From positions 128,001 through 192,000 of the forward strand of contig CAWCVB010000002.1 of the NCBI GenBank assembly GCA_963798915.1: DNA of 64,000 bases, read 5' to 3'. Shown here in pieces: positions 7,506 through 22,085 of the stretch; the stretch's first letter is position 1, and each line of letters starts with the position of its first letter. The notes below the pieces were generated by a model, which was given only the letters and a program-made list of their open reading frames with translations, had not been told where the DNA came from and searched no databases. Position numbers and translations under genes: made by a program. The stretch is from an uncultured Gemmatimonadales bacterium (lineage in GTDB: Bacteria > Gemmatimonadota > Gemmatimonadetes > Gemmatimonadales > GWC2-71-9).

Positions 7506-7991
7506 TCAGCCCCGGCGTGCGGCCTCGATTGCGGCGATGTCGATCTTCTGCATCCCCATCATCACATCGAACGCCCGCTTGGCGGCAGCCGGATCGGGAT
7601 CGGTGATCGCCTGCGTCAGGGCGATCGGCGTGATCTGCCAAGACAATCCCCATTTATCCTTGCACCAGCCGCACGCACTCTCCTCACCACCGTTGCCGAC
7701 GATGGCGTTCCAGTAGCGATCCGTTTCCGCCTGGTCGGTGGTGGCGACCTGGAACGAGAACGCTTCATTGTGCTTGAATTCGGGCCCGCCGTTGAGCCCC
7801 AGGCAGGGAATGCCGATCACGGTAAACTCGACCGTCAACACGTCCCCCTGCTTCCCTGACGGATAGTCACCCGGTGCGCGGTGCACCTTGCCGACGGAAG
7901 AATCAGGGAAGGTCCTGGCGTAAAACTGCGCCGCCGCCTCGGCATCGCGATCGTACCAGAGGCAGATGGTGTTCTTTGCTGGCTTGTCCAT
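7506..7991 (-). CDS. VOC/PhnB-like (3-demethylubiquinone-9 3-methyltransferase family) protein
   Basis: CLWYD..AEAAAQFY, LNGGPEFKHNEAFSF, CGWCKDKWGLSWQI. Confidence 0.9.
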   Translation of the reverse strand: MDKPAKNTICLWYDRDAEAAAQFYARTFPDSSVGKVHRAPGDYPSGKQGDVLTVEFTVIGIPCLGLNGGPEFKHNEAFSFQVATTDQAETDRYWNAIVGNGGEESACGWCKDKWGLSWQITPIALTQAITDPDPAAAKRAFDVMMGMQKIDIAAIEAARRG

Positions 7992-8456
7992 GTCCGTGCT
8001 CCATCGTGATGAGCCAAAGCCGCCGAATCAGAAGTCTCGGAGTCTTGGCAGGTCCTGACAGCCAGTCAAGCCAGGAGACCGTCGGTATGTGGAACAACCC
8101 CGCGCCGTGGGACGAGCGGCGCCTCCTTAGCGATTCGGGTGCCTGAGGATGAGACAAAGCAGGATCGCTCCCGGCTTCGCCATCTACCCTTCCATCGAGA
8201 TGATGATGATATCACCGGGCACTGGCGGCGTTGAGCCCGAGGGGAGGAGCCCCCGCGCGAGGCGCCCGAGCAGCGATCAGACTGGGGGCCGAGATGGCCA
8301 TGCTGGAGGGTCTGACATCGGAGGCGCCACCCGCCTCCGCGCCGCCGGCGGAGTCCGCGGACTCCCAGGGCGGGGCTCCTTGAACGAGCGGGTTGGCAGT
8401 TTCGCATTTGCTCAACGCTCAACGCTCGACGCTCGACGCTCGACGCCTTCCGCTCC

Positions 8457-8486
8457 TGTCACAAGACTGTCCCCTTCCGTGTCATC
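8457..8486 (+). promoter_or_regulatory. ECF41-type promoter upstream of sigJ
   Basis: TGTCACA-n16-TGTCATC. Confidence 0.75.
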
Positions 8487-8499
8487 TTATCAGAGTCGA

Positions 8500-9378
8500 A
8501 TGGAAACGCGCGCGGAAGTCTTTGCTTCAGTACGGCCCATGCTCTTCTCCATTGCCTACCGGATGCTTGGCAGCGTGATGGACGCGGAAGACCTGGTCCA
8601 GGATGCCTACCTGCGGTGGCAGGAGGCAGCCGAGCCGGAGGTGCGCTCGCCCCGCGCCTACCTGACGACGATCGTCACACGGCTCGCGATCAACCAGCTG
8701 CGTTCCGCCCGGCATCGACGCGAAACCTACGTGGGGCCCTGGCTCCCGGAGCCGCTGGTGAGCGATACCGTGCCCGACCCATCCGCCTCCGTGGAGCTTG
8801 CCGAATCGCTCTCGATGGCTTTCCTCGTGCTCATGGAGCGATTGTCGCCGGTGGAGCGCGCCGTCCTCCTGCTGCATGACGTGTTCGACTTCGACTACGG
8901 CGAGATCGCGCGGATCGTGGACAAGACCGAGGTGAATTGCCGCCAGCTGCTGGCCCGGGCCAGGAAGCACGTCGGCGCCGCCCGGACCCGCTTCCAGGCC
9001 GATCCGCAGCGCGCGGCGCAACTGGTGGAGCGGTTTCGCCAGGCATCGGTGCAGGGCGACATGGATGCCCTGGTTTCGTTGCTGGCTGAGGATATCACCC
9101 TCTGGGCCGATGGCGGCGGCAAGGTGCGCGGGGCAGCGCTGAAGCCGGTCCACGGCGCGGACGCGGTGGCGCGGTTTGTCATGGGTACTATGGAGCGCTT
9201 TGTGCCTGCCGGAACCAGCTTCCGCTCGGCTCGCATCAATGGTCAGGCAGGATTTATCGCCTATCTGAGCGGCCAGCCACAGGCAGCGATGATATTCGAC
9301 ATCCAAGCCGACCGCATCCGCACCGTCTACGCCATCGGCAACCCCGACAAGCTGCTGAATCTTCCTGCCACGGACTGA
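8500..9378 (+). CDS. sigJ: ECF sigma factor SigJ (ECF41) with C-terminal SnoaL-like extension
   Basis: AYRMLGSVMDAEDLVQ, YVGPWLPEP, DGGGK, NPDKL (ECF41 hallmark motifs). Confidence 0.93.
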   Translation: METRAEVFASVRPMLFSIAYRMLGSVMDAEDLVQDAYLRWQEAAEPEVRSPRAYLTTIVTRLAINQLRSARHRRETYVGPWLPEPLVSDTVPDPSASVELAESLSMAFLVLMERLSPVERAVLLLHDVFDFDYGEIARIVDKTEVNCRQLLARARKHVGAARTRFQADPQRAAQLVERFRQASVQGDMDALVSLLAEDITLWADGGGKVRGAALKPVHGADAVARFVMGTMERFVPAGTSFRSARINGQAGFIAYLSGQPQAAMIFDIQADRIRTVYAIGNPDKLLNLPATD

Positions 9379-9385
9379 TGTCCGC

Positions 9386-9415
9386 TGTCACAAACACGAG
9401 CCGGCTCCTGTCATC
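9386..9415 (+). promoter_or_regulatory. Second ECF41-type promoter, upstream of the DoxX gene
   Basis: TGTCACA-n16-TGTCATC, same architecture as 8457-8486. Confidence 0.8.
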
Positions 9416-9445
9416 CCTTTGACATCAGGACCAGGAGCGGTTGCC

Positions 9446-10015
9446 ATGATTGCAGCGCATATCGAAGACGTCACCCTCTGGGGTGCTCAGGTGTTCCTTG
9501 CCCTCTTCTTCCTCGGAGCAGGCGCGCCGAAACTGATCGGCCGCGGGCTGGAGCGATGGACCGGATTCTCGGACCTGCCCCGCGCCTTGGTGATCGTTAT
9601 CGGCCTGTCGGAGGTGCTTGGCGCGGCCGGCCTGGTGCTTCCATTGGCAACCGGCATCCTTCCTTGGCTGACACCGCTGGCCGCCGTCGGCCTGGCGGTG
9701 GTGGTGCTCATGGCCTCCGGCTTTCACCTGCGTGCTGACGAACGCCTGCCGGCGCTCGAGACAGCACTCTGGGCCAGCCTGGCCGCCGTCGTCGCCGTTG
9801 GCCGTTGGAACCCGATGGCATCCCGCGTCAAGGTGCCAGGATGGCTGCTGATAGCGGCCCTGTGCCTGCTGGTGCCCGCGGTGATCATCAATGTGGTGAT
9901 CCTGCTGAGGCGGCCGGTGGAGAAGGGAGTCGACGGTCGTCAGTCGTCAGTCGTCAGTCGTCGAGCGGTGCCGATCTGGCCCATCCGTCCTTCCTGCGCG
10001 AGCAGGAATCCATGA
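9446..10015 (+). CDS. DoxX family membrane protein
   Basis: LWGAQVFLALFFLGAGAPK, IGLSEVLGAAGLVLP, LTPLAAVGL..M...FH; RBS AGGAG. Confidence 0.85.
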   Translation: MIAAHIEDVTLWGAQVFLALFFLGAGAPKLIGRGLERWTGFSDLPRALVIVIGLSEVLGAAGLVLPLATGILPWLTPLAAVGLAVVVLMASGFHLRADERLPALETALWASLAAVVAVGRWNPMASRVKVPGWLLIAALCLLVPAVIINVVILLRRPVEKGVDGRQSSVVSRRAVPIWPIRPSCASRNP

Positions 10016-10081
10016 GGGTTCACCCGGAGTGAGTGGCGATGCCCATGGCCCTCATGGACCCCCGCTTTCGCGGGGGTGACG
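9986..10081. repeat. Inverted pair of CGTC-type REP palindromes
   Basis: CGTCCTTCCTGCGCGAGCAGGAATCCAT and ATGGACCCCCGCTTTCGCGGGGGTGACG. Confidence 0.7.
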
Positions 10082-10097
10082 ACAAGGCGAGTTTCGG

Positions 10098-10178
10098 CCC
10101 GCCCATCCCGCCCATCCCGCCCATCCCGCCCATCCCGCCCATCCCGCCCATCCCGCCCTTCGACTGACGACTGACGAC
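10098..10178. repeat. CCCGCCCAT nonamer array plus GACTGAC heptamers
   Basis: About 6 nonamer units. Confidence 0.9.
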
Positions 10179-10239
10179 TTACTATTCGGTGGGACTCGGA
10201 GCGCGTGCTGGCGGGACAAATTCCGAGGAGACTCCGCCG

Positions 10240-12504
10240 ATGACCAGGAGAACGAGGGCTTCCGTCGTGCGGCCGGCCTGTGCGGCTCTGCTGTTGCCGG
10301 CACTGATCTGTCTGTGCCTGGTGTCATCGCGCTTGGCCTGGGGGCAGGTGCCGGGGCCGGTGGCCGGCGCTGCGACAACCGAGGCGCGCATTGATTCACT
10401 GCTCGCGCGCATGACGCTGCAGGAAAAGGCGGGGCAGCTCACCGTCATCGGTCGCGACAACCCTCGCTTTCAGGAGCTGGTTCAGGCCGGCATGGTCGGC
10501 GCCACCGGTGGTGTGCTGGCCGACACCAATGTGGTGAAGTACACCAGGCAGGTGCAGCAACTGGCCCTGCAGTCCCGGCTTCGCATTCCCATTCTCTTCA
10601 CGGGCGACGTGGTACACGGCTTTCGCACCATCTTCCCGGTGCCGATGGCCGTGGCGGCCTCATGGGATCCAGCGCTGCTGCACCAGATGGACAGTGTGGC
10701 GGCGGTGGAGGCAACCGCTGCCGGCGTGACCTGGACCTATGCGCCCATGGTTGACATCGGCCGTGACGCGCGGTGGGGACGGGTACTTGAAGGGGCGGGA
10801 GAAGATCCCTATCTCGGCAGCGTGATGGCGCGCGCCGCGGTGCGCGGGTTCCAGGGCTCGAGCCTGGCCGACCGGACCACGATGCTGGCCACCGCCAAGC
10901 ACTTTGCTGCCTACGGCGCGGTTGAGGCGGGCCGGGACTACAACTCGGTGGACATGTCCGACTGGCAGCTCCGGTCGGTTATCCTGCCGCCCTTCAAGGC
11001 GGCTGTGGACGTCGGCGCCGGCTCGGTCATGGCGGCGTTCGTGTCGCTGAACGGCGTGCCGGCGACGGCAAACCGCTACCTCCTGACCGACATCCTGCGG
11101 AACGAATGGCATTTCAGCGGAATGCTGGTGTCGGACTATGACGCGGTGCCGCAACTCCAGCAGCACGGGGTCGCCACCGATTCGGCCGACGCCGCCAGGC
11201 AGGCGCTGCTGGCTGGCGTAGACCTGGACCTGCATAGCGGGACCTACCTGGCTACGCTGCCGGCGCTGGTGCAGTCGGGCGCGATACCCCGGGAGGCGCT
11301 GGATACCGCCGTGCGCCGGGTGCTCCGTGCCAAGCTCGCCCTGGGGCTCTTTGATGACCCCTTCCATTACGGCGACTCCACCCTCAGCCAGGATTCATTG
11401 CTGGCGGCGCACCGTCCGATCGCGCGCGCCATGGCCGCACGCACCATGGTGCTGCTTCGCAACGAAGGATCCGTGCTCCCACTCCGAAAGGACCTGCCCT
11501 CGCTCGCGGTCATCGGGCCGATGGCCGACAACCAGGCCGACCTCCTGGGTGCGATGCATGCCGTGGGTCGGGACAGCGAAGCGGTGACGGTGCTTCAGGG
11601 AATACGCGAGGCGGTCGCCCCGGGCACGCGCGTGCGCTATGCCCGAGGCGCCGGGTTCATGGACACCAGCTCGACCGGGTTTGCCGACGCGCTGGCGGCA
11701 GCGCGCCAATCGGACGCAGTGGTCATGGTGCTGGGCGAGGGAACCGGCATGAGCGGCGAAGCCGACAGCCGGGCGGACCTGGGTTTGCCGGGACGCCAAC
11801 TGGAGCTGGTCCAGCAGGTCGTCGCGCTTGGCAAGCCGGTTGTGGTGGTGCTGATGGGAGGACGCCCGCTGGCGGTGCCGTGGGTTGCCGAGCATGTGCC
11901 GGCCATTCTCGAGGCGTGGCTGCCGGGCACCGAAGGCGGTCACGCCGTGGCCGACGTGCTCTTCGGCGACATGAATCCCTCGGCTAAACTTCCCATGACC
12001 TTTCCCCGCAGCGTGGGCCAGGTCCCGATCTATTACGCGCATCAGGCCACGGGCCGGCCGTTTGAGCCGAACGACAAGTACACCACCCGTTACATCGACG
12101 TCCCCAACTCGCCGCTCTACCCGTTCGGCTACGGGCTGAGCTATACCTCCTTCAGGTATTCTCCCCTGACGCTGAGCGCGGACCAGCTTGGCTGGAACGA
12201 CACGCTCATGGTCTCGGTCACGCTCTCCAACAGCGGCAAGCGAGACGGCGCTGAAGTGGTGCAATTGTACATACGCGACCTCGTGGCCAGCGTGAGTCCG
12301 CCGGCGGAGCTGCTGAAACGGTTCAGGCGGATGCAGCTGAAGGCGGGGGAGTCGACGCGCGTGACCTTCCGGCTGACCCGGAAGGACCTCGCTTTCTATC
12401 ACGCTGACGGAAGTTTTGCAGCGGAACCCGGCGGGTTCGAAGTTCAGGTAGGCGGCAGCTCGGCCCAGGGCGAAACACAAGCATTTCAGCTGCTGGCCCG
12501 CTGA
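10240..12504 (+). CDS. bglX: Periplasmic beta-glucosidase, GH3
   Basis: DVVHGFRTIFP, RDARWGR..EGAGEDP, AKHFAAYG, VSDY nucleophile, MSGEADSR, PLYPFGYGLSYT, FnIII-like tail; RBS GAGGAG. Confidence 0.93.
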   Translation: MTRRTRASVVRPACAALLLPALICLCLVSSRLAWGQVPGPVAGAATTEARIDSLLARMTLQEKAGQLTVIGRDNPRFQELVQAGMVGATGGVLADTNVVKYTRQVQQLALQSRLRIPILFTGDVVHGFRTIFPVPMAVAASWDPALLHQMDSVAAVEATAAGVTWTYAPMVDIGRDARWGRVLEGAGEDPYLGSVMARAAVRGFQGSSLADRTTMLATAKHFAAYGAVEAGRDYNSVDMSDWQLRSVILPPFKAAVDVGAGSVMAAFVSLNGVPATANRYLLTDILRNEWHFSGMLVSDYDAVPQLQQHGVATDSADAARQALLAGVDLDLHSGTYLATLPALVQSGAIPREALDTAVRRVLRAKLALGLFDDPFHYGDSTLSQDSLLAAHRPIARAMAARTMVLLRNEGSVLPLRKDLPSLAVIGPMADNQADLLGAMHAVGRDSEAVTVLQGIREAVAPGTRVRYARGAGFMDTSSTGFADALAAARQSDAVVMVLGEGTGMSGEADSRADLGLPGRQLELVQQVVALGKPVVVVLMGGRPLAVPWVAEHVPAILEAWLPGTEGGHAVADVLFGDMNPSAKLPMTFPRSVGQVPIYYAHQATGRPFEPNDKYTTRYIDVPNSPLYPFGYGLSYTSFRYSPLTLSADQLGWNDTLMVSVTLSNSGKRDGAEVVQLYIRDLVASVSPPAELLKRFRRMQLKAGESTRVTFRLTRKDLAFYHADGSFAAEPGGFEVQVGGSSAQGETQAFQLLAR

Positions 12505-12536
12505 GGCCGGCGGTCGCGACCCTCGACCTTCAGCCC

Positions 12537-13637
12537 ATGCACTCCTGCTTTGCCGTGACTACGCCGGGCCTCGAAGCCATCACCGCCCGCGAGCTCACCG
12601 CGCTCGGCATAGCGATCACCGAAACGGAACCGGGCGGCGTCGCGTTCCAGGCCGATGCCGCCGAACTCGCTCGCGCCAACATCTGGCTGAGAACGGCGTC
12701 GCGCGTATTGGTGCGAATCGCGCAGTTCCACGCGTTCTCATTTCCCGAACTGGAGCGGCACGCTCGCCAGGTGGCGTGGGGCGAGTATCTCGCCGACGGC
12801 ATTTCACCGGTATTCCGGATCACCTCGAAAAAGTCGAAGCTGTACCATCAGGGCGCGATCGCCGAGCGACTCCAGCGATGCACCGGGATCCCGGCGCCCG
12901 CCGATGATGCCCCGGCCGACTCGGGACAGCTGTTCGTGGTGCGAGTGCACCGGGACCAGGTCACGGTCAGTGCGGATGCATCAGGCGAACTGCTCCATCG
13001 GCGCGGGTATCGGCTGGAGCAGGCCCGCGCGCCGCTTCGCGAGACGCTCGCAGCCGCAATGCTGCTGGGGGTGGGATGGGACGGCAGCGTACCGCTGGTG
13101 GATCCGTTCGCGGGTTCCGGCACCATCGCGATTGAAGCAGCCATGATCGCACGCAACATGGCGCCGGGCGCGCGGCGATCATTCGCTGCGGAACGGTGGC
13201 CCAGCATGGCAGGAGGAGTGTTCGCGGCGGGTCGAGCGTCGAGCGTCGAGGGTCGAGAGCATGACGCTCGACGCATCATCGCCAGCGACCGCGATGCCGG
13301 CGCGGTCGCGGCAATGGGTCGGAACGCCGAACGCGCCGGCGTGGCTGCCGATCTCTCGATCCGGCAGGCGGTCATCTCCGAGCTGCGGTTGCCGGAGCAG
13401 CCGGGCTGGATCGTGACCAACCCGCCCTACGGAGTGCGCGTGGGCGACCGCCTGCGGCTTCGGGATCTGTATGCCCAGACCGGCACGCTGCTTCGCACGC
13501 GCGCCCGCGGGTGGCGGCTGGCACTGCTCAGCACCCATCCGGCACTGGAGCATCAGCTGGCGCTGCCACTGACGCCTGTCTGGCAGTCCACCAATGGCGG
13601 CATCACTGTCCGGCTGGTGACGGCCAGTCTGCCTTGA
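12537..13637 (+). CDS. THUMP-domain class I SAM-dependent RNA methyltransferase (RlmL-like)
   Basis: SKLYHQGAIAER, LHRRGYR, APLRETLAA, DPFAGSGTIAIEAA, TNPPYG. Confidence 0.9.
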   Translation: MHSCFAVTTPGLEAITARELTALGIAITETEPGGVAFQADAAELARANIWLRTASRVLVRIAQFHAFSFPELERHARQVAWGEYLADGISPVFRITSKKSKLYHQGAIAERLQRCTGIPAPADDAPADSGQLFVVRVHRDQVTVSADASGELLHRRGYRLEQARAPLRETLAAAMLLGVGWDGSVPLVDPFAGSGTIAIEAAMIARNMAPGARRSFAAERWPSMAGGVFAAGRASSVEGREHDARRIIASDRDAGAVAAMGRNAERAGVAADLSIRQAVISELRLPEQPGWIVTNPPYGVRVGDRLRLRDLYAQTGTLLRTRARGWRLALLSTHPALEHQLALPLTPVWQSTNGGITVRLVTASLP

Positions 13638-14514
13638 GTCGTGCCAGCGCATCCTTGAGCCCATTCACTCGCTCCCGCAAGACGTCGTCCGCGCTCAGCC
13701 TGCCGTGCGCCGGATTCCGCGCCAGATCGGCAAACTGATCCTCCGCTGCTTGTACCGTAGCACGGTCGGAGGGGGCGCCCAGCTTCCATGGACCGAATCG
13801 GGTAAGCTGGCCGGTGCGCAGCGAATGGCGCACATAGTCGGCCAGGCGAATGTGCGGGGCGTTCCGGTGCTGGTCGTGCAGTGCTGGCACGTGCACCGGG
13901 GCGTAGTCCATCCGCAGTGATGCGGTCCAGTCCTGCCACTTGAATGCATTGATATGCTCGTAGCCCGCGATCGGCACCCAGGGAATCCTGAGCGCGTCGG
14001 CGACGATCGCGGCGTGCATGGCACCCGAGATCACGCATCGGCTGGCGGCCATCTGTGCGAGCGTCCGGTCCACCGAGGCCCACGGATCGAGAAAGGTCAG
14101 TCCCAGGCGGTTGCAGAATGACCGCCAGTCGAACATCGGCCGGCTGATGTGATGGGGCATGAAGGCCACGCGCCCGGTGCGCCGGCCGGGCGGCACCAGG
14201 TCGGTGATGAGGGCGGCGGAATCGGTGATGGCCAGCTCGGGCGGGAGGCCCAGCGCCGCCGCAGTGCCGGGTCCCCGGACGGCGTAGAAGCGCCAGCGCT
14301 CATCCACTAGCGGGAGTTCGCCGTATCCCACTCCGGCGCCGAGGACCACCTTGAACGGCTCCCGGGGGAGCCGGGCATGAAGCACCGTCCCGATGCCGAG
14401 GAGCAGGGGATCGGGGCCGTCCGGGCTGGCACCGGGCAGGACCCTGGGCCAGAGCCAGAGATTGAGATCGTCGCCAAAATTCCCGTACGAATCGTGGAAG
14501 TAATGTATTCGCAT
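13603..14514 (-). CDS. Polysaccharide pyruvyl transferase family protein (ExoV-like)
   Basis: GNFGDDLN.WLW, GIGTVL, AVRGP.TA, MPH, AMHAAIVADALRIPW, FKWQDW. Confidence 0.85.
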   Translation of the reverse strand: MRIHYFHDSYGNFGDDLNLWLWPRVLPGASPDGPDPLLLGIGTVLHARLPREPFKVVLGAGVGYGELPLVDERWRFYAVRGPGTAAALGLPPELAITDSAALITDLVPPGRRTGRVAFMPHHISRPMFDWRSFCNRLGLTFLDPWASVDRTLAQMAASRCVISGAMHAAIVADALRIPWVPIAGYEHINAFKWQDWTASLRMDYAPVHVPALHDQHRNAPHIRLADYVRHSLRTGQLTRFGPWKLGAPSDRATVQAAEDQFADLARNPAHGRLSADDVLRERVNGLKDALARLKADWPSPAGQ

Positions 14515-14648
14515 GAATTTAGGTCAAGTGCCCCGGGGCGGAGGTGTCAAAAAATTGAATAGGGAAAAACCTAGGGGACAAATTTCCGGGTAGGTGTTAG
14601 CGTAGTCTCGCCCCCTGATGGCCGGCTCGTGCCGGCAGGAGTGTCGAG

Positions 14649-15002
14649 ATGGCGCCAGCGAACCGCCGGGACATTGATGTGCTCATCGAAAAGCATGAGA
14701 CGCGCCTCCGCGATGATTTCGACGACCGGGACATCGCGATCTATGTCCGGAGCCTGCTGGTTTCGATGACCGGCCAGTGGCACTTCAGCGCCATTACGCC
14801 GGAGACCCACCTGTACCGGGACCTGCGCTGGAACGTGGAGAGCGCCGAGCGGTTCCGTGCCACGCTGGAGGCGGTGTTCCGGGTGGAACTTGCCCCGTGG
14901 GAATTCCTCTGTGGCCGGACCGTCCGCGATCTCACTACACTTCTGGGCCGGGCGCTGAGCCGGGACCGGCGCCGCTTCGGCGGCGCTCCACCCGCCGCGT
15001 GA
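14649..15002 (+). CDS. Acyl-carrier-protein-like small protein lacking the DSL serine
   Basis: ITPETHLYRDL...LEAVFRVEL...RTVRDL follows the ACP pattern; RBS AGGAG at 14637. Confidence 0.55.
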   Translation: MAPANRRDIDVLIEKHETRLRDDFDDRDIAIYVRSLLVSMTGQWHFSAITPETHLYRDLRWNVESAERFRATLEAVFRVELAPWEFLCGRTVRDLTTLLGRALSRDRRRFGGAPPAA

Positions 15003-15081
15003 TCCGGGTTCCCATGCCCATATCTCACCCCCTGAGTTACTGTCGGCCACTCAGCCGTCCCCCTGTGGGAGAGGAGCGCGC

Positions 15082-15399
15082 ATGTTCACCGGCAAGGAAG
15101 ACCACGTCATCAGTCTCGAGCAGGCCCGTGTACTGGTCCAGCGCTGGCGCGAGCGGGGTTCCGCCCTGGCGGGTGACCCTGGCTCGGAATTTTTCGGTCG
15201 GGATGTCATTGAAAAGATACTCGGGCAGCCAGGCTGTGTGGGTCTTCGGATCCATCACGGGCGCAACGCCAAGGGGCAGCACACCATGCTGCTCGTGGGG
15301 GCTGACGCAGACGGCAACGAGCTGCTGGATGGCACCATCGCGGAGCAGGGCATGCCATGCCCACCGTTTTGCGGCGACGGAGGCATGCTCAGCCCGTGA
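15082..15399 (+). CDS. Conserved-looking small protein with C-terminal PCPPFC motif
   Basis: Strong RBS GGAGAGGAG; ISLEQAR..FFGRDVIEKIL.QPGCVGLRI..G....LLVGADADGNEL..PCPPFC; stop overlaps the next start. Confidence 0.8.
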   Translation: MFTGKEDHVISLEQARVLVQRWRERGSALAGDPGSEFFGRDVIEKILGQPGCVGLRIHHGRNAKGQHTMLLVGADADGNELLDGTIAEQGMPCPPFCGDGGMLSP

Positions 15400-16106
15400 G
15401 TGCGCCCGCGGACCTGCTGTGGCATCTGGTCTCGCCTCTAGTGCGGGCCATGCGGCACCTGCCGCTCGCGGCGGGCGGCATTCTGTTTCCCATCGTACCG
15501 ATTCTGGCCGCCTGGCCGCGGCGGCACCAGCTGTCGGTGCCGCTGCGATGGGTTGTGGTATACCTGATCGTTACGCTGGCCGAAGAACTCTTCATGCTGT
15601 ACTGGAGCCGGCACGGCCGGCATAATCTCTGGATCATCAACCTGTACACGCCCATCGAGGCGTTCATGCTGGCCATGATGTATGCCGGCTGGCAGCTGCG
15701 GGAGCGGTGGCGTTTCATGATCTACCTGTCGCTGGCGGGTTTCGTCGCCTTCTGGGTGCTGATGATGTTCACCATCGAAGGGTTTGACACCTTCCCGAAG
15801 TTCAGCAAGCCGGTGGAGGCGCTGCTGGTCATCACGGCGTCGGCCTGGACGCTGGTCCAGCGATCCCGGCACGCCGCTTCACCGCTGACGTTCCACCCCT
15901 GGTTCTGGGTCTCGGTCGGGACGCTGCTCTACTTTGCCTACCTGCTGCTGCTCAATCCGGTCGGGATGATGCTGCTGAACCCGCGGCCCGACCTCTTCCG
16001 GCTGGCCTACGGCATCAACGGCGTCCTCACGACGATCATGTATCTCTTCTGGCTGCGCGCCATCTTCCTGGTTCGCACACCGGCGAAAGGCGACGCCCCC
16101 GCATGA
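15396..16106 (+). CDS. Polytopic (about 7 TM) membrane protein, putative accessory sensor
   Basis: Multiple hydrophobic helices; HNLWIINLYTPIE and PWFWVSVGTLLYF motifs; GTGA and ATGA overlaps with both neighbours. Confidence 0.75.
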   Translation: MSAPADLLWHLVSPLVRAMRHLPLAAGGILFPIVPILAAWPRRHQLSVPLRWVVVYLIVTLAEELFMLYWSRHGRHNLWIINLYTPIEAFMLAMMYAGWQLRERWRFMIYLSLAGFVAFWVLMMFTIEGFDTFPKFSKPVEALLVITASAWTLVQRSRHAASPLTFHPWFWVSVGTLLYFAYLLLLNPVGMMLLNPRPDLFRLAYGINGVLTTIMYLFWLRAIFLVRTPAKGDAPA

Positions 16107-16873
16107 ACGTTTCTCCCGGCGATCTGTTCTGGATCCTGGTGATCGTCACGCTCGCTGCGGCGATCCTGATTCTGGCGTTCGCGGCCAGTCTGGTCATCCA
16201 GCAGCGGCGTCTGGTCCGTGCCACCCGCTCCTTCGGCGGACGACTCCTCTCGGCCCAGGAGGACGAGCGGCGCTGGGTGGCGCGCGAGCTGCACGACGAT
16301 ATCATCCAGCGGGTTGCAATGCTGGGCCACGAAGTGGAAGAGATCGCCTCCCATAATGGTTCGAGCCCGGCCGAATTTGCCAAGCGCGCCAGCGGTCTCC
16401 GGGCCGAACTCGACGACCTGGCGGAAGAAGTACGGCGACTGGCGCACCGGATGCATCCGACCACGCTCGAGCACCTCGGGCTGAGCGCTGCGCTGGAGCA
16501 GCTTGCCACGGAATTCCGCGGCCAGGGACTTGATGTGCGGGTACGCGGGGCGCTGCCCGATGGCGAGCTGTCGCCCGAGGCCGCGACCTGCCTGTTTCGG
16601 GTGGCCCAGGAAGGCTTGCGCAATGTGCTGAAGCATGCGCAGACCCGAACAGCGATGGTGCGGCTGGGCACGGAGGCCGACGGCGCGTTGCTCGAGGTGG
16701 CCGATGGCGGCGCAGGCTTTGACCGCAGTTCCGCGGCCGCCCAGGCCGGCCTCGGCCTCTCCAGTCTCTCGGAGCGCGTGCGGCTCCTCCATGGCAGGCT
16801 TACCGTGCGGACCCGTCAGGGGCAGGGCACCAGCGTAACGGCGTGGGTACCGCCGCTCGTCCGGCGGGCATGA
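16103..16873 (+). CDS. HisKA_3 sensor histidine kinase with a single N-terminal TM helix and no sensor domain
   Basis: QEDERRWVARELHDDIIQ, FRVAQEGLRNVLKHA, DGGAGF, GLGL..L.ERV, GT. Confidence 0.93.
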   Translation: MNVSPGDLFWILVIVTLAAAILILAFAASLVIQQRRLVRATRSFGGRLLSAQEDERRWVARELHDDIIQRVAMLGHEVEEIASHNGSSPAEFAKRASGLRAELDDLAEEVRRLAHRMHPTTLEHLGLSAALEQLATEFRGQGLDVRVRGALPDGELSPEAATCLFRVAQEGLRNVLKHAQTRTAMVRLGTEADGALLEVADGGAGFDRSSAAAQAGLGLSSLSERVRLLHGRLTVRTRQGQGTSVTAWVPPLVRRA

Positions 16874-17511
16874 CGCGTCCGCGCATCCTGATCGCCGATG
16901 ATCATGCGCTGGTGGCTGCCGGTCTTCGCGCCATGCTGGAGCCGGCGCATGAGGTGGTGGAGGTCGTCTCCAATGGGCTGGATGTGATCGAAGCCGTCGA
17001 GCGGCATCAGCCCGACCTGGTGCTGCTGGACATTTCGCTCCCGGGCCGGAGCGGCATGGAGGTGGCTCGCGACCTCGCCGCGCATCCATCCGGCGTGCCG
17101 TTCGTCATGCTGACCATGCATGCGGATCCCATCTACGCCGATGAAGCCATTGCCTCGGGCGCCATCGGATTCGTGCTCAAGATGGCCGGGCCGGATGAAC
17201 TCCGATTCGCGATCGCGCAGGCGCTGCAGGGCCAGGTATACATCACGCCGCGACTGCCCGCGCGCAGCAGGCCGCTCACGGCGCCGAAGGGCCTGGAGGC
17301 GGAGAGCGCGCTGGCGGCACTCACCCGGCGCCAGCAGCAGATCCTCAAGCTGATCGCCAAGGGATGGAGCCTCAAGGACATCGCCGATGAGCTGGGGATC
17401 AACATCCGCAGTGTGGAGTTCCATCGGAACCGTATCCGCAAGACACTGGGGCTGACCAGCACGGCGGCCCTGGTCCGCTTTGCGCTGGTTCATGGGCTGG
17501 TGAAGCATTGA
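16870..17511 (+). CDS. NarL/LuxR family response regulator
   Basis: ILIADDH, PDLVLLDISLP, LTMH, GFVLK; LuxR HTH LTRRQQQILKLIAKG..LKDIADEL. Confidence 0.95.
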   Translation: MTRPRILIADDHALVAAGLRAMLEPAHEVVEVVSNGLDVIEAVERHQPDLVLLDISLPGRSGMEVARDLAAHPSGVPFVMLTMHADPIYADEAIASGAIGFVLKMAGPDELRFAIAQALQGQVYITPRLPARSRPLTAPKGLEAESALAALTRRQQQILKLIAKGWSLKDIADELGINIRSVEFHRNRIRKTLGLTSTAALVRFALVHGLVKH

Positions 17512-17651
17512 CAGGGCGAACTGCTTTGCGCACCTGATCGGTGCGGATGTCGGTCCCACACGCGCCTTTACGATCTACCTCGTGCAATGACCGACGCCGC
17601 CAGCGCGCCGATGCTGGGGCACGGGATGGCCTGAAGTCGTGAGGTGATACC

Positions 17652-18155
17652 ATGTCCAGATTCAGCATGCTGATCGTCAGCACGGTGCTTCTGATTCCGG
17701 GCGCTGCACTGGCCCAGGGCCGGCCACTGGCCCCGACGGGATTGTGGGGAAGTCTCGCGGTCGGCCCCTCCACGCCGTACGATTATGGAGCGACCCTGTC
17801 GCTGGCCTATCGCAGCGGCCACTACATCTTTCGGGGCAGGTTCTCCGCCGTTGGAGAACTCTTCGGGAACCAGAACGGCGAATACGGCCTGCTGGTCGGC
17901 CGCGTCGTGACGCCGATGCGCGGTTCGGTGCAGTTCAGTGTGGGGGCGGGACTGGGCCTGGTGACCGGGTGGCAGGGCGGAGGCGTGTTTGCCAGTGGCG
18001 AGCCGACCGACGACGTGATGGGCGTACTGCTGAACGGGGAAACGCGGATCCGGCTCACCAGCTTTCTCGGGCTTTCGGCCACGCTGTTTGGCGACCTCAA
18101 TGGGCGGGAGTCCTTCGGCGGTCTTGCCGCCGGGATCTACCTTGGGCAATTCTAG
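17652..18155 (+). CDS. Hypothetical secreted / small outer-membrane beta-barrel protein
   Basis: Signal peptide, alternating Gly/aromatic strands, terminal Phe; RBS GAGGT. Confidence 0.6.
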   Translation: MSRFSMLIVSTVLLIPGAALAQGRPLAPTGLWGSLAVGPSTPYDYGATLSLAYRSGHYIFRGRFSAVGELFGNQNGEYGLLVGRVVTPMRGSVQFSVGAGLGLVTGWQGGGVFASGEPTDDVMGVLLNGETRIRLTSFLGLSATLFGDLNGRESFGGLAAGIYLGQF

Positions 18156-18171
18156 CAGGGACTGGTGACGC

Positions 18172-19396
18172 ATTGACCTGACGTCGGGGGCGCCGTTCTG
18201 GCCGGTGCGCGACGGCCTCATGGCCACTTACCCGGCATTGACGTCGGACATCGAGTGCGACGTGCTGGTGGTGGGTGGCGGGGTCACCGGTGCGCTCTCG
18301 GCCTGGCAGCTGGTGCAGGCGGGACTCGACACGGTGCTCGTGGACGCCCGCGAAATCGGCTGGGGCAGCACCAGCGCCTCCACCGCGCTCCTGATGTACG
18401 ACCTGGACGTCCAGCTCGTGGACCTGACCCATCAGGTCGGCCGGGAGCGCGCCGAGGCGGTGTACCGTGCGGCGCGCGAGGCGGTGCACTCGCTGTGCGC
18501 CATGAGCGGTGCGCTGAGCGCTGAGCGTGTACCGTCCAGCGTCCGACGCGTCCCGACTCTCTACCTTGCCAGCCGCGCGAGCGACGCCGCAAGGCTGAGG
18601 CGCGAGCAGGCGGCGCGCGAGCAGGCGGGACTCGAGGTGGAATACTGGGACCGCGAGGAGATCGCGCGGCATTTTCCGTTCAGCCGAGCTGCCGCGCTGT
18701 GGCATGAGGACGCGGCGCAGGTGGATCCGCTGGCGTTCACGCATGCGTTGCTGGCCGATGGGGTGAGGCACGGGTTGAGAGTCTTTGATCGGACGGCGGT
18801 CAACGGTCGACGGTCGACGGTGGCGACGGACGACCGACGACCGACGACTGTCGACCTCAAGCGGAGCGTACATACGCGCCGATCGTCTCGTCTACGCCAC
18901 CGGCTACGAAACCGAGCAGCGGCTGCGGCAGCCGTCGGTGCATCTGCACGACACGTATGCCTTTGCCAGTGAACCGGTGGAAGACCTCGCCGACTGGCAC
19001 CGGCGGGCCCTCATATGGGAAACTGCCAGGCCCTATCTCTATCTCCGCACCACCCAGGACAACCGGGTGATGGTCGGCGGCGGCGATGACCGCCACACCA
19101 CACCCGAGCGCCGGGACCGGGCGCTGCCGGAGAAGCTGGAGCAGCTGCTGCGCCGGGCTCGGCGCATGTTTCCCGGCCTGGACCTCACGCCAGCCTTTGC
19201 CTGGGCCGGGACCTTTGCCGAAACCGACGACGGCATGCCGTATATCGGATGCCATCCCCGATATCCCGGCGCCATCTTCGCGGCCTGCTACGGCGGGAAC
19301 GGGACCGTGTTCGCGATGATGGCCTCGGAGATTGTGCGCGATTGGTGCTTGGGACGGAAGAACGAGATGGCGGAGTGGTTCGGGTTCGGGAGATAG
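18172..19396 (+). pseudogene. FAD-dependent oxidoreductase (DAO family) split by a frameshift inside a heptamer repeat
   Basis: Frame 1: DVLVVGGGVTG, GSTSASTALL, AQVDPLAF. Frame 2: LVYATGYE, WETARPYLYLRTT, WAGTFAETDDGMPYIG, YGGNG. Confidence 0.8.
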
Positions 19397-19457
19397 GAGG
19401 AAAGCGCGAAGCGCCGCAGGGGCGGGTCTCTGGGCCGCCCCTCTCTCTCCCGTGCAG

Positions 19458-19586
19458 GCGGGGCTCGGCAACAGGGAACACGAAAACACGAAAACACGAA
19501 AGCACGGAAGAGAAGCACGAAAGCACGAAAGCACGAAAGCACGGAAGCACGGAAGCACGAAAACACGGAAGCACGGAAGCACGAAG
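19458..19586. repeat. GCGGGGCTCGGCAACAG followed by a CACGAAAG/CACGGAAG octamer array
   Basis: About 12 octamers; the same composite occurs at 21520-21567. Confidence 0.85.
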
Positions 19587-19639
19587 TGGTCGATGATGGA
19601 GCGTCGACCGTTGACTATCGACGATATTCGGGAGGCGTC

Positions 19640-20092
19640 ATGATGCGCATTTGTTCTGGTGTCCTGGTTCTGATGTGTACGCTCACGCCAGCCCTCCACG
19701 CCCAGCAGGGTCCGCCGCCATCGGTCATGATTGCGCACACGACGCCCAAGGCCATTGGCGCGGCGATGCTGGAGGTGCTGCAACCCCAGAAATTCAAGGT
19801 CGCCAAGGCGAGCAAGGGTCGCATTGTCCTGTCGCAGAACCGCGGGAACGTGGCGCAGGCCACCGGCGAGGTGATGCGGGTGCGGCTCGAGATGGTGTTT
19901 GCCGTGGAGCAGGTGGGCGACAGTCTCAAGATCACTGCCACCAGTGAAACCTACTACGCTGACCGGGGCCCGATGGGGGAGCAGGCCCGGTCGGTGGACG
20001 TGAACAAGGAGCGGCAGAACTTCGAGTTGCTGCTGAATGCGACGAAGGAGAGGATCGAACACTCCTCGCCGGCCGATTCCGCCGGGACGTAA
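19640..20092 (+). CDS. Hypothetical secreted protein
   Basis: RBS GGAGG, signal peptide ending ALHA. Confidence 0.65.
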   Translation: MMRICSGVLVLMCTLTPALHAQQGPPPSVMIAHTTPKAIGAAMLEVLQPQKFKVAKASKGRIVLSQNRGNVAQATGEVMRVRLEMVFAVEQVGDSLKITATSETYYADRGPMGEQARSVDVNKERQNFELLLNATKERIEHSSPADSAGT

Positions 20093-20172
20093 GCGTAGCC
20101 CGGCAAGGCGACAGCGGCACAGGAATCTCGTTGGTGGGCAGGCCAACCTTCTGTCTCGTCAGGGGAAATCAC

Positions 20173-20613
20173 ATGCGTGCATTGGTCGCCGGACTTCTGG
20201 TAATCGGATTGGCCGGCCTGGCCGGCTGTGGCGGAGACAGCACCGGACCATCCAGCACGTCGATCGCCGGCACCTGGACCATGTCCATCAGCAACCTCTC
20301 GGCCAATGGTGTGACCTGCAACGCGAGCGGCATCACCATGACCCTGACCGCGAACGGTTCCGTCTTCACCGGCAACTACGGCGGCGTGCTGTCGTGCGGC
20401 CCGACCGGCGGGGTGCCCGACTCGGCGCCAGTGAGCGGCACGATCATCAATGGGGTCCGGAACGGCACCCAGGTGTCGTTCGACCTGGACACGTCGGACG
20501 CGCATCATACCGGGACCATCAGTGGCAACTCCATGAGCGGCACCGCGAGCTACCGGTTCAACTTTGGCAGCGGGCCGGTGGTGCTCAGCGGCTCGTGGGC
20601 CGCGGCCCGGTGA
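20173..20613 (+). CDS. Hypothetical lipoprotein (beta-rich)
   Basis: Lipobox LAGC; IAGTW...SGSW. Confidence 0.75.
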   Translation: MRALVAGLLVIGLAGLAGCGGDSTGPSSTSIAGTWTMSISNLSANGVTCNASGITMTLTANGSVFTGNYGGVLSCGPTGGVPDSAPVSGTIINGVRNGTQVSFDLDTSDAHHTGTISGNSMSGTASYRFNFGSGPVVLSGSWAAAR

Positions 20614-20635
20614 CCCCTCACTCAGGAGCATCATC

Positions 20636-21508
20636 GTGTTCTTCATTCTCTTTCTGCTGATCGCAGCTGGAGCGCTCATTGCGCGGCATATACTCAAGCC
20701 GGCCGACGAACCAGGCGCGAGAGCAAGCCTGCTCCTGATCGTGGGTGTCGCAGCGGGACTGCTGGCACTCGTCAACTGCTTTACCGTCATCCCGGCAGGT
20801 CACGTGGGCGTGGTGGATCTGTTCGGCACCGTGTCCGGGACGACCCTCAAGTCGGGGATCAATCTGGTCAACCCGTTGGCCAGAGTGGTCAAGATGTCGG
20901 TCAAGACCCAGGAAATGAAGGAAGTGATGGAGGTGCCGTCAAAGGAAGGCCTGACCGTCCAGCTGGAAATCAGCGTGTTGTACCACCTCAATCCGGAGAA
21001 GGCCGCAGATGTCTACCGGACGGTGGGGCAGAGTTATGAGTCGGTTCTGCTCGAGCCGCAGTTCCGCTCAGTCACCCGCGGCGTCACGGCCAGCTTCGAG
21101 GCCAAGGCCCTGTACACCTCTGAGCGCGAGCACCTCTCGAAGTTGATTGCCAACGAGATCGTGGCGGCGACCGCCCCACGCGGCATTACGGTCGAGGGCG
21201 CTCCGCTCCGCAAGGTGACGTTGCCGCCGGGCCTCTCCACCTCGATCGAGCAGAAGCTGCAGGCGGAGCAGGAGAGCCAGCGCATGCAATTCGTCCTGAC
21301 CAAGGAGAAGCAGGAAGCCGACCGGAAACGGATCGAGGCCGAGGGCATCTCGGATTTCCAGAAGATCGTGCAGCAGGGTATCTCCCAGCAGCTGCTGCAG
21401 TGGAAAGGCATCGAGGCCACTGAGAAGATCGCCTCATCGCCGAATACCAAGGTGATCATCGTGGGTGCGGGGCGGGATGGCCTGCCAGTAATTCTGGATA
21501 CGAAGTGA
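20636..21508 (+). CDS. Prohibitin/SPFH (band 7) family protein
   Basis: IPAGHVGVV..FG, VPSKEGL, KLQAEQESQRM, EADRKRIEAEG; GTG start after AGGAG. Confidence 0.92.
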   Translation: MFFILFLLIAAGALIARHILKPADEPGARASLLLIVGVAAGLLALVNCFTVIPAGHVGVVDLFGTVSGTTLKSGINLVNPLARVVKMSVKTQEMKEVMEVPSKEGLTVQLEISVLYHLNPEKAADVYRTVGQSYESVLLEPQFRSVTRGVTASFEAKALYTSEREHLSKLIANEIVAATAPRGITVEGAPLRKVTLPPGLSTSIEQKLQAEQESQRMQFVLTKEKQEADRKRIEAEGISDFQKIVQQGISQQLLQWKGIEATEKIASSPNTKVIIVGAGRDGLPVILDTK

Positions 21509-21587
21509 GTTGCCCCAGCGCGGGGCTCGGCAACAGCGCGCACGAAGGCACGAAAGCACGAAAGCACTGCATGATTGCGAGGCGTCC

Positions 21588-22085
21588 ATGAGTTACGACA
21601 TGGAGTTCCATGGGAAGTTTGCTATTCAACCGCCGCTCCGCCCCGAGCATGTGGCGTATCTTGGGGCCTTCAATCGGACTCGGCGCGTCAAGCGTGATCC
21701 CGAGCTCACCGCGCTCCGGGGCGATCCCATTCGAACGGCGGCCGGCCTGTCCATCGGTGAGGAAGGTGGATACTTCGTGGGCGAAACCGGAGCTTTCGGC
21801 GAGGACCGTGGCGCTGACGTGCTGGATGCAAATCGGCCGCCGGTCGGCCAGCCGGAACTCTGGTGCCATTGGGCTCCGACACCGGACGGATCAGCGATTG
21901 TCTGGGACGGACAGGAGAAGTTTTACGAGTACGAGCGATGGATCGCCTACTTGATAGGCCACTTTCTGGCGCCATGGGGATATCTGATCAACGGTAAGGT
22001 CGAGTGTCTCGGTGAAGATTGGTGCGAGCCGAGCGCACTCAGGGTCGAGGACAATCACGTGTTCTTTTGGGGAGCGGAGGTCTGA
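21588..22085 (+). CDS. Conserved hypothetical protein (type often seen in phage/viral genomes)
   Basis: MSYDMEFHGKF, RTRRVKRD, QPELWCHW, WDGQEKFYEY..W..YLI.HFL.PWGY..NG; family assignment is from recall only. Confidence 0.65.
   Translation: MSYDMEFHGKFAIQPPLRPEHVAYLGAFNRTRRVKRDPELTALRGDPIRTAAGLSIGEEGGYFVGETGAFGEDRGADVLDANRPPVGQPELWCHWAPTPDGSAIVWDGQEKFYEYERWIAYLIGHFLAPWGYLINGKVECLGEDWCEPSALRVEDNHVFFWGAEV

Follow-up and report, generated by a model that had tools for sequence, protein, structure and literature searches.

A Four-Gene Operon in a Gemmatimonadales Genome

The DNA window analyzed here, a 64-kb stretch of contig CAWCVB010000002.1 from an uncultured Gemmatimonadales bacterium, contains at 15082-17511 a cassette of four open reading frames (ORFs), all on the + strand, which encode a small protein with a cysteine motif (hereafter S), a seven-helix membrane protein (M), a HisKA_3 histidine kinase, and a NarL/LuxR-type response regulator. 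According to the ORF list and the sequence, the four ORFs are chained by 4-base stop-start overlaps: GTGA at 15396-15399 between S and M, ATGA at 16103-16106 between M and the kinase, and ATGA at 16870-16873 between the kinase and the regulator. Overlaps at 15396, 16103, and 16870 had been pointed out in an earlier reading of the region by a model (hereafter the sequence-only reading), and the sequence bears them out. Together, they make up a single translationally coupled operon. The arrangement is more than chance: all four genes have conserved homologs in the same order in other genomes, as discussed later.

The S gene (15082-15399, + strand, 105 aa) is preceded by a ribosome-binding site, GGGAGAGGAG (15067-15076, + strand), located 6 bases 5' of its ATG; in the alignment of upstream regions, both the GGGAG core of this site and the ATG are kept in six related Gemmatimonadales loci. 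The M gene (15396-16106, + strand, 236 aa) begins with a GTG within the stop of S, a start that the N-termini in the alignment of M homologs (alignment A2) favor over an upstream ATG at 15357. It is followed by the genes for the kinase (16103-16873, + strand, 256 aa) and the regulator (16870-17511, + strand, 213 aa), the latter with an alternative in-frame GTG start at 16843. The G+C content of the cassette (0.66) matches that of the window (0.654), in which S and M occur in one copy each. No obvious regulator-binding palindrome was seen upstream of S in the upstream-region alignment, a promoter and terminator scan and Rfam gave nothing informative for the cassette region, and Rfam had no match within 12000-22000.

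The Small Cysteine-Motif Protein and Its Family

S has no hydrophobic segment at its N-terminus, in line with the absence of a signal peptide claimed in the sequence-only reading. The compact alpha/beta core claimed there also agrees with the AlphaFold2 model (predicted local distance difference test, pLDDT, 73), in which one strand and a long helix, then two shorter helices and a meander of three strands, are predicted to form a folded domain with a 4-stranded sheet overall. The domain is followed by a tail with the sequence G-M-P-C-P-P-F-C at residues 90-97, within which P-C-P-P-F-C (residues 92-97, codons at 15355-15372, + strand) carries the hallmark Cys pair of S. This motif had been described as terminal, which is incorrect: it is sub-terminal, and eight residues (GDGGMLSP) remain before the stop.

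The close homologs of S (13 proteins with 46-70% identity, from Gemmatimonadales where named) share an invariant C52 and an invariant P92-C93-P94-P95-x-C97 (alignment A1). A profile search of 1.84 billion cluster representatives placed S in a far larger family, with 2256 representatives at E ≤ 1e-3 and 960 at E ≤ 1e-10. To describe this family, we combined the best 149 of the 2256 representatives with 14 close sequences; 162 of these 163 sequences had domain matches, and 218 domains that each covered more than 80 profile positions were kept, while shorter matches were dropped. Among these 218 domains, the most conserved positions are G54 (207 domains), R56 (203), Y58 (192), Q49 (191), G73 (191), P94 (189), C93 (181), C97 (178), P95 (164), and C52 (155). 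C93, P94, and C97 are invariant across 74 diverse single-domain members (alignment A3), the Cys pair is present in 100 of the 102 relatives with one retained domain, and C93-C97 is the top co-varying pair in the family (0.436), so that the conservation of PCPPxC on which the sequence-only reading depended holds well beyond close relatives. Judged by sequence, the P-C-P-P-aromatic-C motif is the hallmark of a large unnamed family.

Between the second Pro and the second Cys, most motifs have an aromatic or aliphatic residue (F in 39, Y in 32, I in 17, and W in 14 of 151 occurrences). The tail after the second Cys has exactly 8 residues in 52 of the 151 occurrences, and a Leu is found at position +6 in 62 of 86 short tails, giving the conserved pattern C-x3-[S/N]-x-L-x-x-end. 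Members of the family are leaderless (~105 aa), extended at the N-terminus by a signal peptide, anchor, or lipobox (~140 aa), or built of two domains in tandem. A heuristic based on hydrophobicity classes 45 of the 102 single-domain relatives (~44%) as exported, and C52 is kept in 54 of 57 leaderless vs. 29 of 45 exported forms. In the tandem proteins, the Cys pair is present in 26 of 58 first (internal) domains vs. 49 of 58 last domains. Because it occurs in internal domains, the motif belongs to the domain more than to a C-terminal peptide.

Neither S nor any of the 74 diverse relatives matched a Pfam or NCBIfam model. In the PDB, the best sequence-profile matches of S were insignificant (E 0.28-0.6), and Foldseek returned no match at E ≤ 0.001. 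A tblastn search of S against plasmids gave no match, PADLOC had none for S, M, or the kinase, and a cluster look-up of 10 S relatives yielded only entries that were unnamed or labeled "hypothetical protein." Likewise, a protein atlas held only unnamed Bacteroidota clusters, one of which was automatically named "Lysoplasmalogenase" without Pfam support. S may be compared with Sco copper chaperones and thioredoxin-fold oxidoreductases, which likewise place paired cysteines in a loop containing Pro and include proteins located on either side of the membrane. The assignment of S to the thioredoxin-fold or Sco type was considered and rejected, given its predicted order of strand, helix, helices, and three strands and the lack of a significant fold or sequence match in the PDB. 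One further hit, P0067, is a giant (4303-aa) surface protein of the adhesin type with MucBP and Listeria-Bacteroides repeats, whose 10 partial matches covered only S-profile positions 30-80 and were not used; these matches reflect either remote, extracellular kinship with the S core or an artifact of the repeats.

The Seven-Helix Membrane Protein

The AlphaFold2 model of M (pLDDT 87.7, predicted template modeling score 0.85) comprises an amphipathic N-terminal helix and seven membrane-length helices, and so agrees with the earlier description of M as a 7TM protein. The 21 homologs of M at 53-74% identity are accompanied by more distant members found in other loci (see below). M had no match in Pfam, NCBIfam, or PADLOC, and no meaningful one was obtained for a set of 17 M proteins. 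Even at E ≤ 1, no Pfam family was found for more than two of the 17; the 7TM and 5TM sensor modules, the CPBP/Abi proteases, and AgrB were all absent from these matches. The alignment of the 17 members has no invariant column and no conserved Cys, His, or Met ligands. Comparison of M with the PDB by Foldseek gave nothing at E ≤ 0.001, the nearest structures (E ≥ 0.15, template modeling scores 0.36-0.54) showing a generic seven-helix resemblance of the kind seen with G-protein-coupled receptors, and the PDB sequence profiles returned TatC at an insignificant E of 0.13. Lys/Arg counts predict an N-out, C-in orientation in distant members, including, by eye, the M of a Bacteroidota locus (L008), and are ambiguous in Gemmatimonadales; the C-terminus of M is probably cytoplasmic.

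A Kinase without an Input Domain

The kinase matched HisKA_3 at residues 55-122 (1e-08, 36 bits, cut-off 24) and HATPase_c at residues 164-250 (7.4e-11, 42.9 bits, cut-off 26.4), with no further Pfam domain. It has a single hydrophobic helix at about residues 9-32, with at most ~8 residues beyond the membrane, and its His box lies at about residue 62, where an ELHDD box can be read from the sequence. Since there is only one helix with at most ~8 residues outside and the His box follows directly, the kinase has no input domain. The sequence-only reading had described it as a one-helix HisKA_3 kinase devoid of a sensory domain, and the Pfam and hydrophobicity results uphold that description. The kinase is a bare core of a dimerization and histidine phosphotransfer (DHp) domain and a catalytic and ATP-binding (CA) domain, anchored in the membrane by one helix. 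The regulator matched Response_reg (1.8e-26, 92.9 bits) and GerE (3.7e-14, 52.5 bits), both above the cut-offs, and thus combines a receiver (REC) domain with a GerE helix-turn-helix. By its domains, the pair belongs to the two-component systems formed by HisKA_3 kinases and NarL/LuxR regulators. Against the NCBIfam equivalogs MctS, UhpB, NarX/NarQ, LiaS, and MadS, the kinase scored far under all cut-offs; its best match was MctS (149.7 bits, cut-off 700), LiaS gave 66.1 bits (cut-off 450), and the matches spanned the DHp-CA part only.

The same architecture recurs in the homologous cassettes described below: all 13 of their kinases have a single N-terminal helix and none has an external domain. 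The helix runs straight into the His box in 11 of the 13, while the other two (L008 and L009) have a cytoplasmic PAS insert. In one locus (L010, 5850-5940), the kinase frame is open 5' of the first ATG, GTG, or TTG and encodes the expected membrane helix, which points to a non-standard start codon or to a frame change that escaped detection where M meets the kinase.

Conservation of the Cassette across Genomes

A genome scan with the close alignment A1 recovered 15 loci (L001-L015), a set biased towards S relatives that carry HGRNx[KG]GQH or E[QE]GxPCPPxC. Nine loci belong to Gemmatimonadales/Gemmatimonadaceae, five to Bacteroidota, and one to Ignavibacteriales (phylum Ignavibacteriota of the Fibrobacteres-Chlorobi-Bacteroidetes, or FCB, group). 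We searched the ORFs of each locus with the S and M profiles and with the kinase and regulator of the window. A polytopic membrane gene directly follows S in all 15 loci, with gaps between the two genes of about -4 to +27 bases as read from the coordinates, and in 14 of the 15 it is a detectable homolog of M. The weakest of these homologs, in L013 (E 1.8e-12) and L011 (E 1.1e-08), were recognized by a profile built without them. A HisKA_3 kinase comes next in 13 of the 14 loci in which the contig continues (in L003 the contig ends inside M), and a REC-GerE regulator follows in nine of the 10 loci with enough sequence (L001, L002, L005, L006, L007, L008, L009, L010, and L011); in L004, L013, and L015, the contig ends before the position of the regulator.

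Beyond the close relatives L001-L006, the only shared genes are the four cassette genes. The 28 flanking genes of L007-L015 had no common function in Pfam and gave no clue to a regulon. Overall, Gemmatimonadales, Bacteroidota, and Ignavibacteriales share the order of S, M, kinase, and regulator but not the flanking genes. The cassette proposed in the sequence-only reading is thus conserved well past close relatives. The statement made there that PCPPxC proteins occur beside membrane protein, histidine kinase, and LuxR genes in Bacteroidota was also correct (L008, L011, L013, and L015), and the Ignavibacteriales locus L009 has the same neighborhood.

A Candidate Input Module for the Kinase

We consider it, on balance, somewhat probable that S and M together form the input module of the sensor-less kinase, with the Cys pair of S serving as a thiol or metal switch. 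The two parts of this proposal differ in strength: a functional tie of S and M to the two-component system is the firmer part, and a role of the Cys pair as a redox or metal switch, a suggestion drawn from the pattern of conserved residues, is the more tentative one. In this proposal, M would supply the input domain that the kinase is missing and could exert control through contact with the single membrane helix of the kinase. S would be a stable folded accessory protein and no peptide precursor. Its C93 and C97, held in a rigid P-C-P-P-aromatic-C loop and often accompanied by C52, might form a thiol/disulfide or soft-metal switch, the state of which would be relayed to M or the kinase via the conserved, fixed-length tail of S. 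Phosphotransfer to the regulator would then alter the transcription of its targets. The signal received by such a module might be an oxidant, an electrophile, a metal, or some other cue. A predicted complex of M and S, computed from alignments A2 and A1 without controls, scored 0.00 (mark 0.32) and counts for neither side.

Several observations weigh against this proposal. The physical or functional link among S, M, and the kinase is deduced from gene order. Gene order is also what favors the idea, put forward in the sequence-only reading, that M is one half of a split receptor; no fused M-kinase protein was found among 8000 candidates scored, which is weak evidence against that idea. The Cys tail of S (residues 91-105) has a pLDDT below 50, and metal or disulfide geometry is therefore unreadable from the model, and S shows no fold or sequence similarity to known redox or metal proteins in Pfam, the PDB, or Foldseek searches. 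Two loci depart from the common layout. In L014 (Cyclobacteriaceae), S and M form a pair with a 4-base overlap (7899-8812), and no kinase or regulator was detected in the 16-kb locus, so the S-M pair can exist without a two-component system. In L012 (Gemmatimonadales), the membrane protein was undetected by the M profile (hhalign probability 1.9%), leaving its homology unproven, and a 1125-aa Trans_reg_C/BTAD/AAA_16/TPR regulator (7656-11033) takes the place of the REC-GerE regulator.

The location of S poses a further difficulty. As read from the N-termini, the S proteins of the window and of 14 of the 15 loci have no leader, while S of L008 has, by eye, a clear signal peptide; in the wider family, close to half of the single-domain relatives are exported, as noted above. 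Yet the Lys/Arg distribution of M indicates the same orientation (N-out, C-in) in the distant members, L008 included. The co-occurrence of exported and leaderless S with one orientation of M makes a single docking surface between S and M hard to reconcile. Three ways out remain: S may act via a diffusible ligand or redox state, it may act on different partners on either side of the membrane, or leaderless S may be translocated. A more far-reaching version of the proposal, which we regard as a rather unlikely but distinct possibility, is that S and M constitute a new bacterial receptor in which the Cys-loop tail of S is a redox- or metal-gated protein ligand of a seven-helix transducer that drives the sensor-less kinase from within the membrane. 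Moving S from one compartment to the other would allow such a receptor to be wired to the cytoplasm or to the periplasm; otherwise, M itself would carry leaderless S across the membrane. This two-compartment version is suggested because one type of cassette has S homologs that act within the cell and others that act outside it.

Alternative Explanations

It is also conceivable, at a fairly low probability in our estimate, that S and M function together in their own right, for instance as a thiol or metal chaperone acting alongside a permease or membrane enzyme, and that the two-component system monitors or regulates this pair, which would then be no dedicated receptor. By analogy, the system might then sense flux as in BceAB-BceS, or control the pair as co-regulated cargo as in liaIH. 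The S-M pair without a kinase in L014 fits this explanation, as do the occurrence of S on both sides of the membrane, which recalls thioredoxin-like and metallochaperone families, and the coupling of S to a membrane gene, which is the most constant feature of the cassette (15/15 loci). Yet M has neither conserved Cys, His, or Met ligands nor an invariant column among the 17 aligned members and matches no transporter or enzyme family, and the input of the cassette kinases, which consistently have no input domain themselves, must come from a partner. An explanation that we hold to be improbable assigns S a role as a cytoplasmic connector or anti-kinase, of which Sda, KipI, and FixT are examples, that would act on the DHp/CA core or the regulator, with M as a separate anchor or sensor. 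The leaderless form of S in the window and in nearly all loci, together with the fact that the only sizeable part of the kinase is cytoplasmic, would suit such a role, but an exported S, as in the L008 cassette and in many single-domain relatives, cannot reach a cytoplasmic core, and L014 indicates that S is tied most tightly to M rather than to the kinase.

The remaining explanation is an autocrine system of the agr type, in which the tail of S would be cut, cyclized into a CPPFC ring, and exported by M, to be sensed outside the cell via M and the kinase; we find it very improbable. The four-gene layout does resemble agrBDCA (AgrB-AgrD-AgrC-AgrA) in that a small ORF stands together with genes for a polytopic membrane protein, a kinase, and a regulator. 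The C-terminal tail of S has a fixed length and a conserved Leu, and, with leaderless S having exported relatives, the tail could end up outside the cell either way. Against this, the most conserved part of S is its folded domain of ~90 aa, with G54 and R56 at the head of the conserved positions. The modeled 105-aa S thus differs from the short unstructured agr precursor in both size and fold. The motif is internal in many tandem proteins, and motif and tail are conserved across three phyla with no hypervariability, while pheromones are hypervariable. Furthermore, M has no invariant residues and no match to the AgrB peptidase or to CPBP/Abi even at E ≤ 1, the kinase has one helix and no polytopic sensor, the regulator is of the GerE rather than the LytTR type, and the cassette contains no protease, cyclase, or exporter. 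The sequence-only reading had offered a cyclized, released CPPFC peptide with a self-processing core as one possibility, and this is poorly supported, the motif being non-terminal and the core the most conserved part. Its other possibility, in which the membrane protein would respond to a redox or metal switch, appears to fit better than a released peptide.

Comparison with Known Accessory Proteins

Kinases that sense within the membrane are acted on by LiaF, SpdC, ScrA, and BceAB, and one of them, LiaS, has two membrane helices, compared with one in the cassette kinase. LiaF is reported to be a membrane protein from the operon of the LiaS kinase that acts as an accessory factor and controls this kinase (PMC3543457). 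SpdC and ScrA are reported to be separate proteins that tune WalK and SaeS, respectively, partly by contacts within the membrane (PMC5854430, PMC12239555). MgrB is described as tying PhoQ to the DsbA-dependent redox state of the periplasm (PMC11825808), and in HbpS-SenS-SenR a membrane kinase reportedly learns of redox stress through an accessory protein that is not itself a kinase (PMC4991794).

The cassette resembles LiaFSR of Firmicutes in combining a HisKA_3 kinase that lacks an external sensor, a NarL-type regulator, and an accessory membrane protein in one operon. It differs in that neither M nor its 16 relatives had a LiaF-type match in Pfam or NCBIfam and in that the small Cys protein S has no equivalent in LiaFSR. 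SpdC, ScrA, and MgrB have no sequence or family relation to M, they are not known as translationally coupled operon partners that are conserved from phylum to phylum, and S is a soluble folded 105-aa protein rather than a membrane peptide. HbpS-SenS-SenR of Streptomyces is similar in pairing an accessory protein with a membrane kinase, with redox reporting in that case. HbpS is secreted and belongs to another family, and the system has no seven-helix partner; S had no similarity in Pfam or the PDB.

Flanking Region

Immediately upstream of the cassette, a 117-aa ORF (14649-15002) lies 79 bases from S and is found in the same place in L001-L006 only. By eye it may be carrier-protein-like, and it belongs to no Pfam or NCBIfam family. 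Its neighbor, encoded on the opposite strand (13603-14514), is a polysaccharide pyruvyl-transferase-like gene. The regulator gene is directly followed by one for a 167-aa protein with a signal-like N-terminus (17652-18155), which is conserved in L001 and L002 and had no Pfam or NCBIfam match; it is a possible candidate for a target of the regulator.

Two tandem repeats lie further downstream. The 7-base repeat CGGTCGA (8.1 copies, 18797-18855, within 18205-19396) sits where a flavin adenine dinucleotide (FAD)-oxidoreductase-like gene is split into overlapping ORFs in different frames (18205-18972 and 18785-19396). In L002 and L006, the homologs of this gene are each one unbroken ORF (375-402 aa), and the split could reflect a repeat-mediated frameshift or insertion, or an assembly artifact. 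The second repeat, with the 8-base unit CACGAAAG (13.8 copies, 86% matches, 19479-19585), is apparently intergenic.

Implications for Two-Component Signaling

For the many histidine kinases in which no input domain can be recognized, the mode of switching has long been a gap in the field. Accessory proteins are already known from two-component systems; what is new here is that two families without a curated model are tied by gene order to sensor-less kinases in Gemmatimonadota, Bacteroidota, and Ignavibacteriota. In open-access full texts and bioRxiv, we found no description of the cassette, only analogs, and none of S or M, in agreement with the earlier statement that no functional characterization of such PCPPxC proteins is known. 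The S family has more than 2000 cluster representatives, and the phyla that carry the cassette are abundant in soil and sediment and have few characterized signaling systems. The cassette is a testable candidate for both a new kinase input module and a new Cys-motif domain. In addition, the split between exported and leaderless S within one type of cassette is unusual, and it could reveal how a module for sensing is redirected from one cellular compartment to another.

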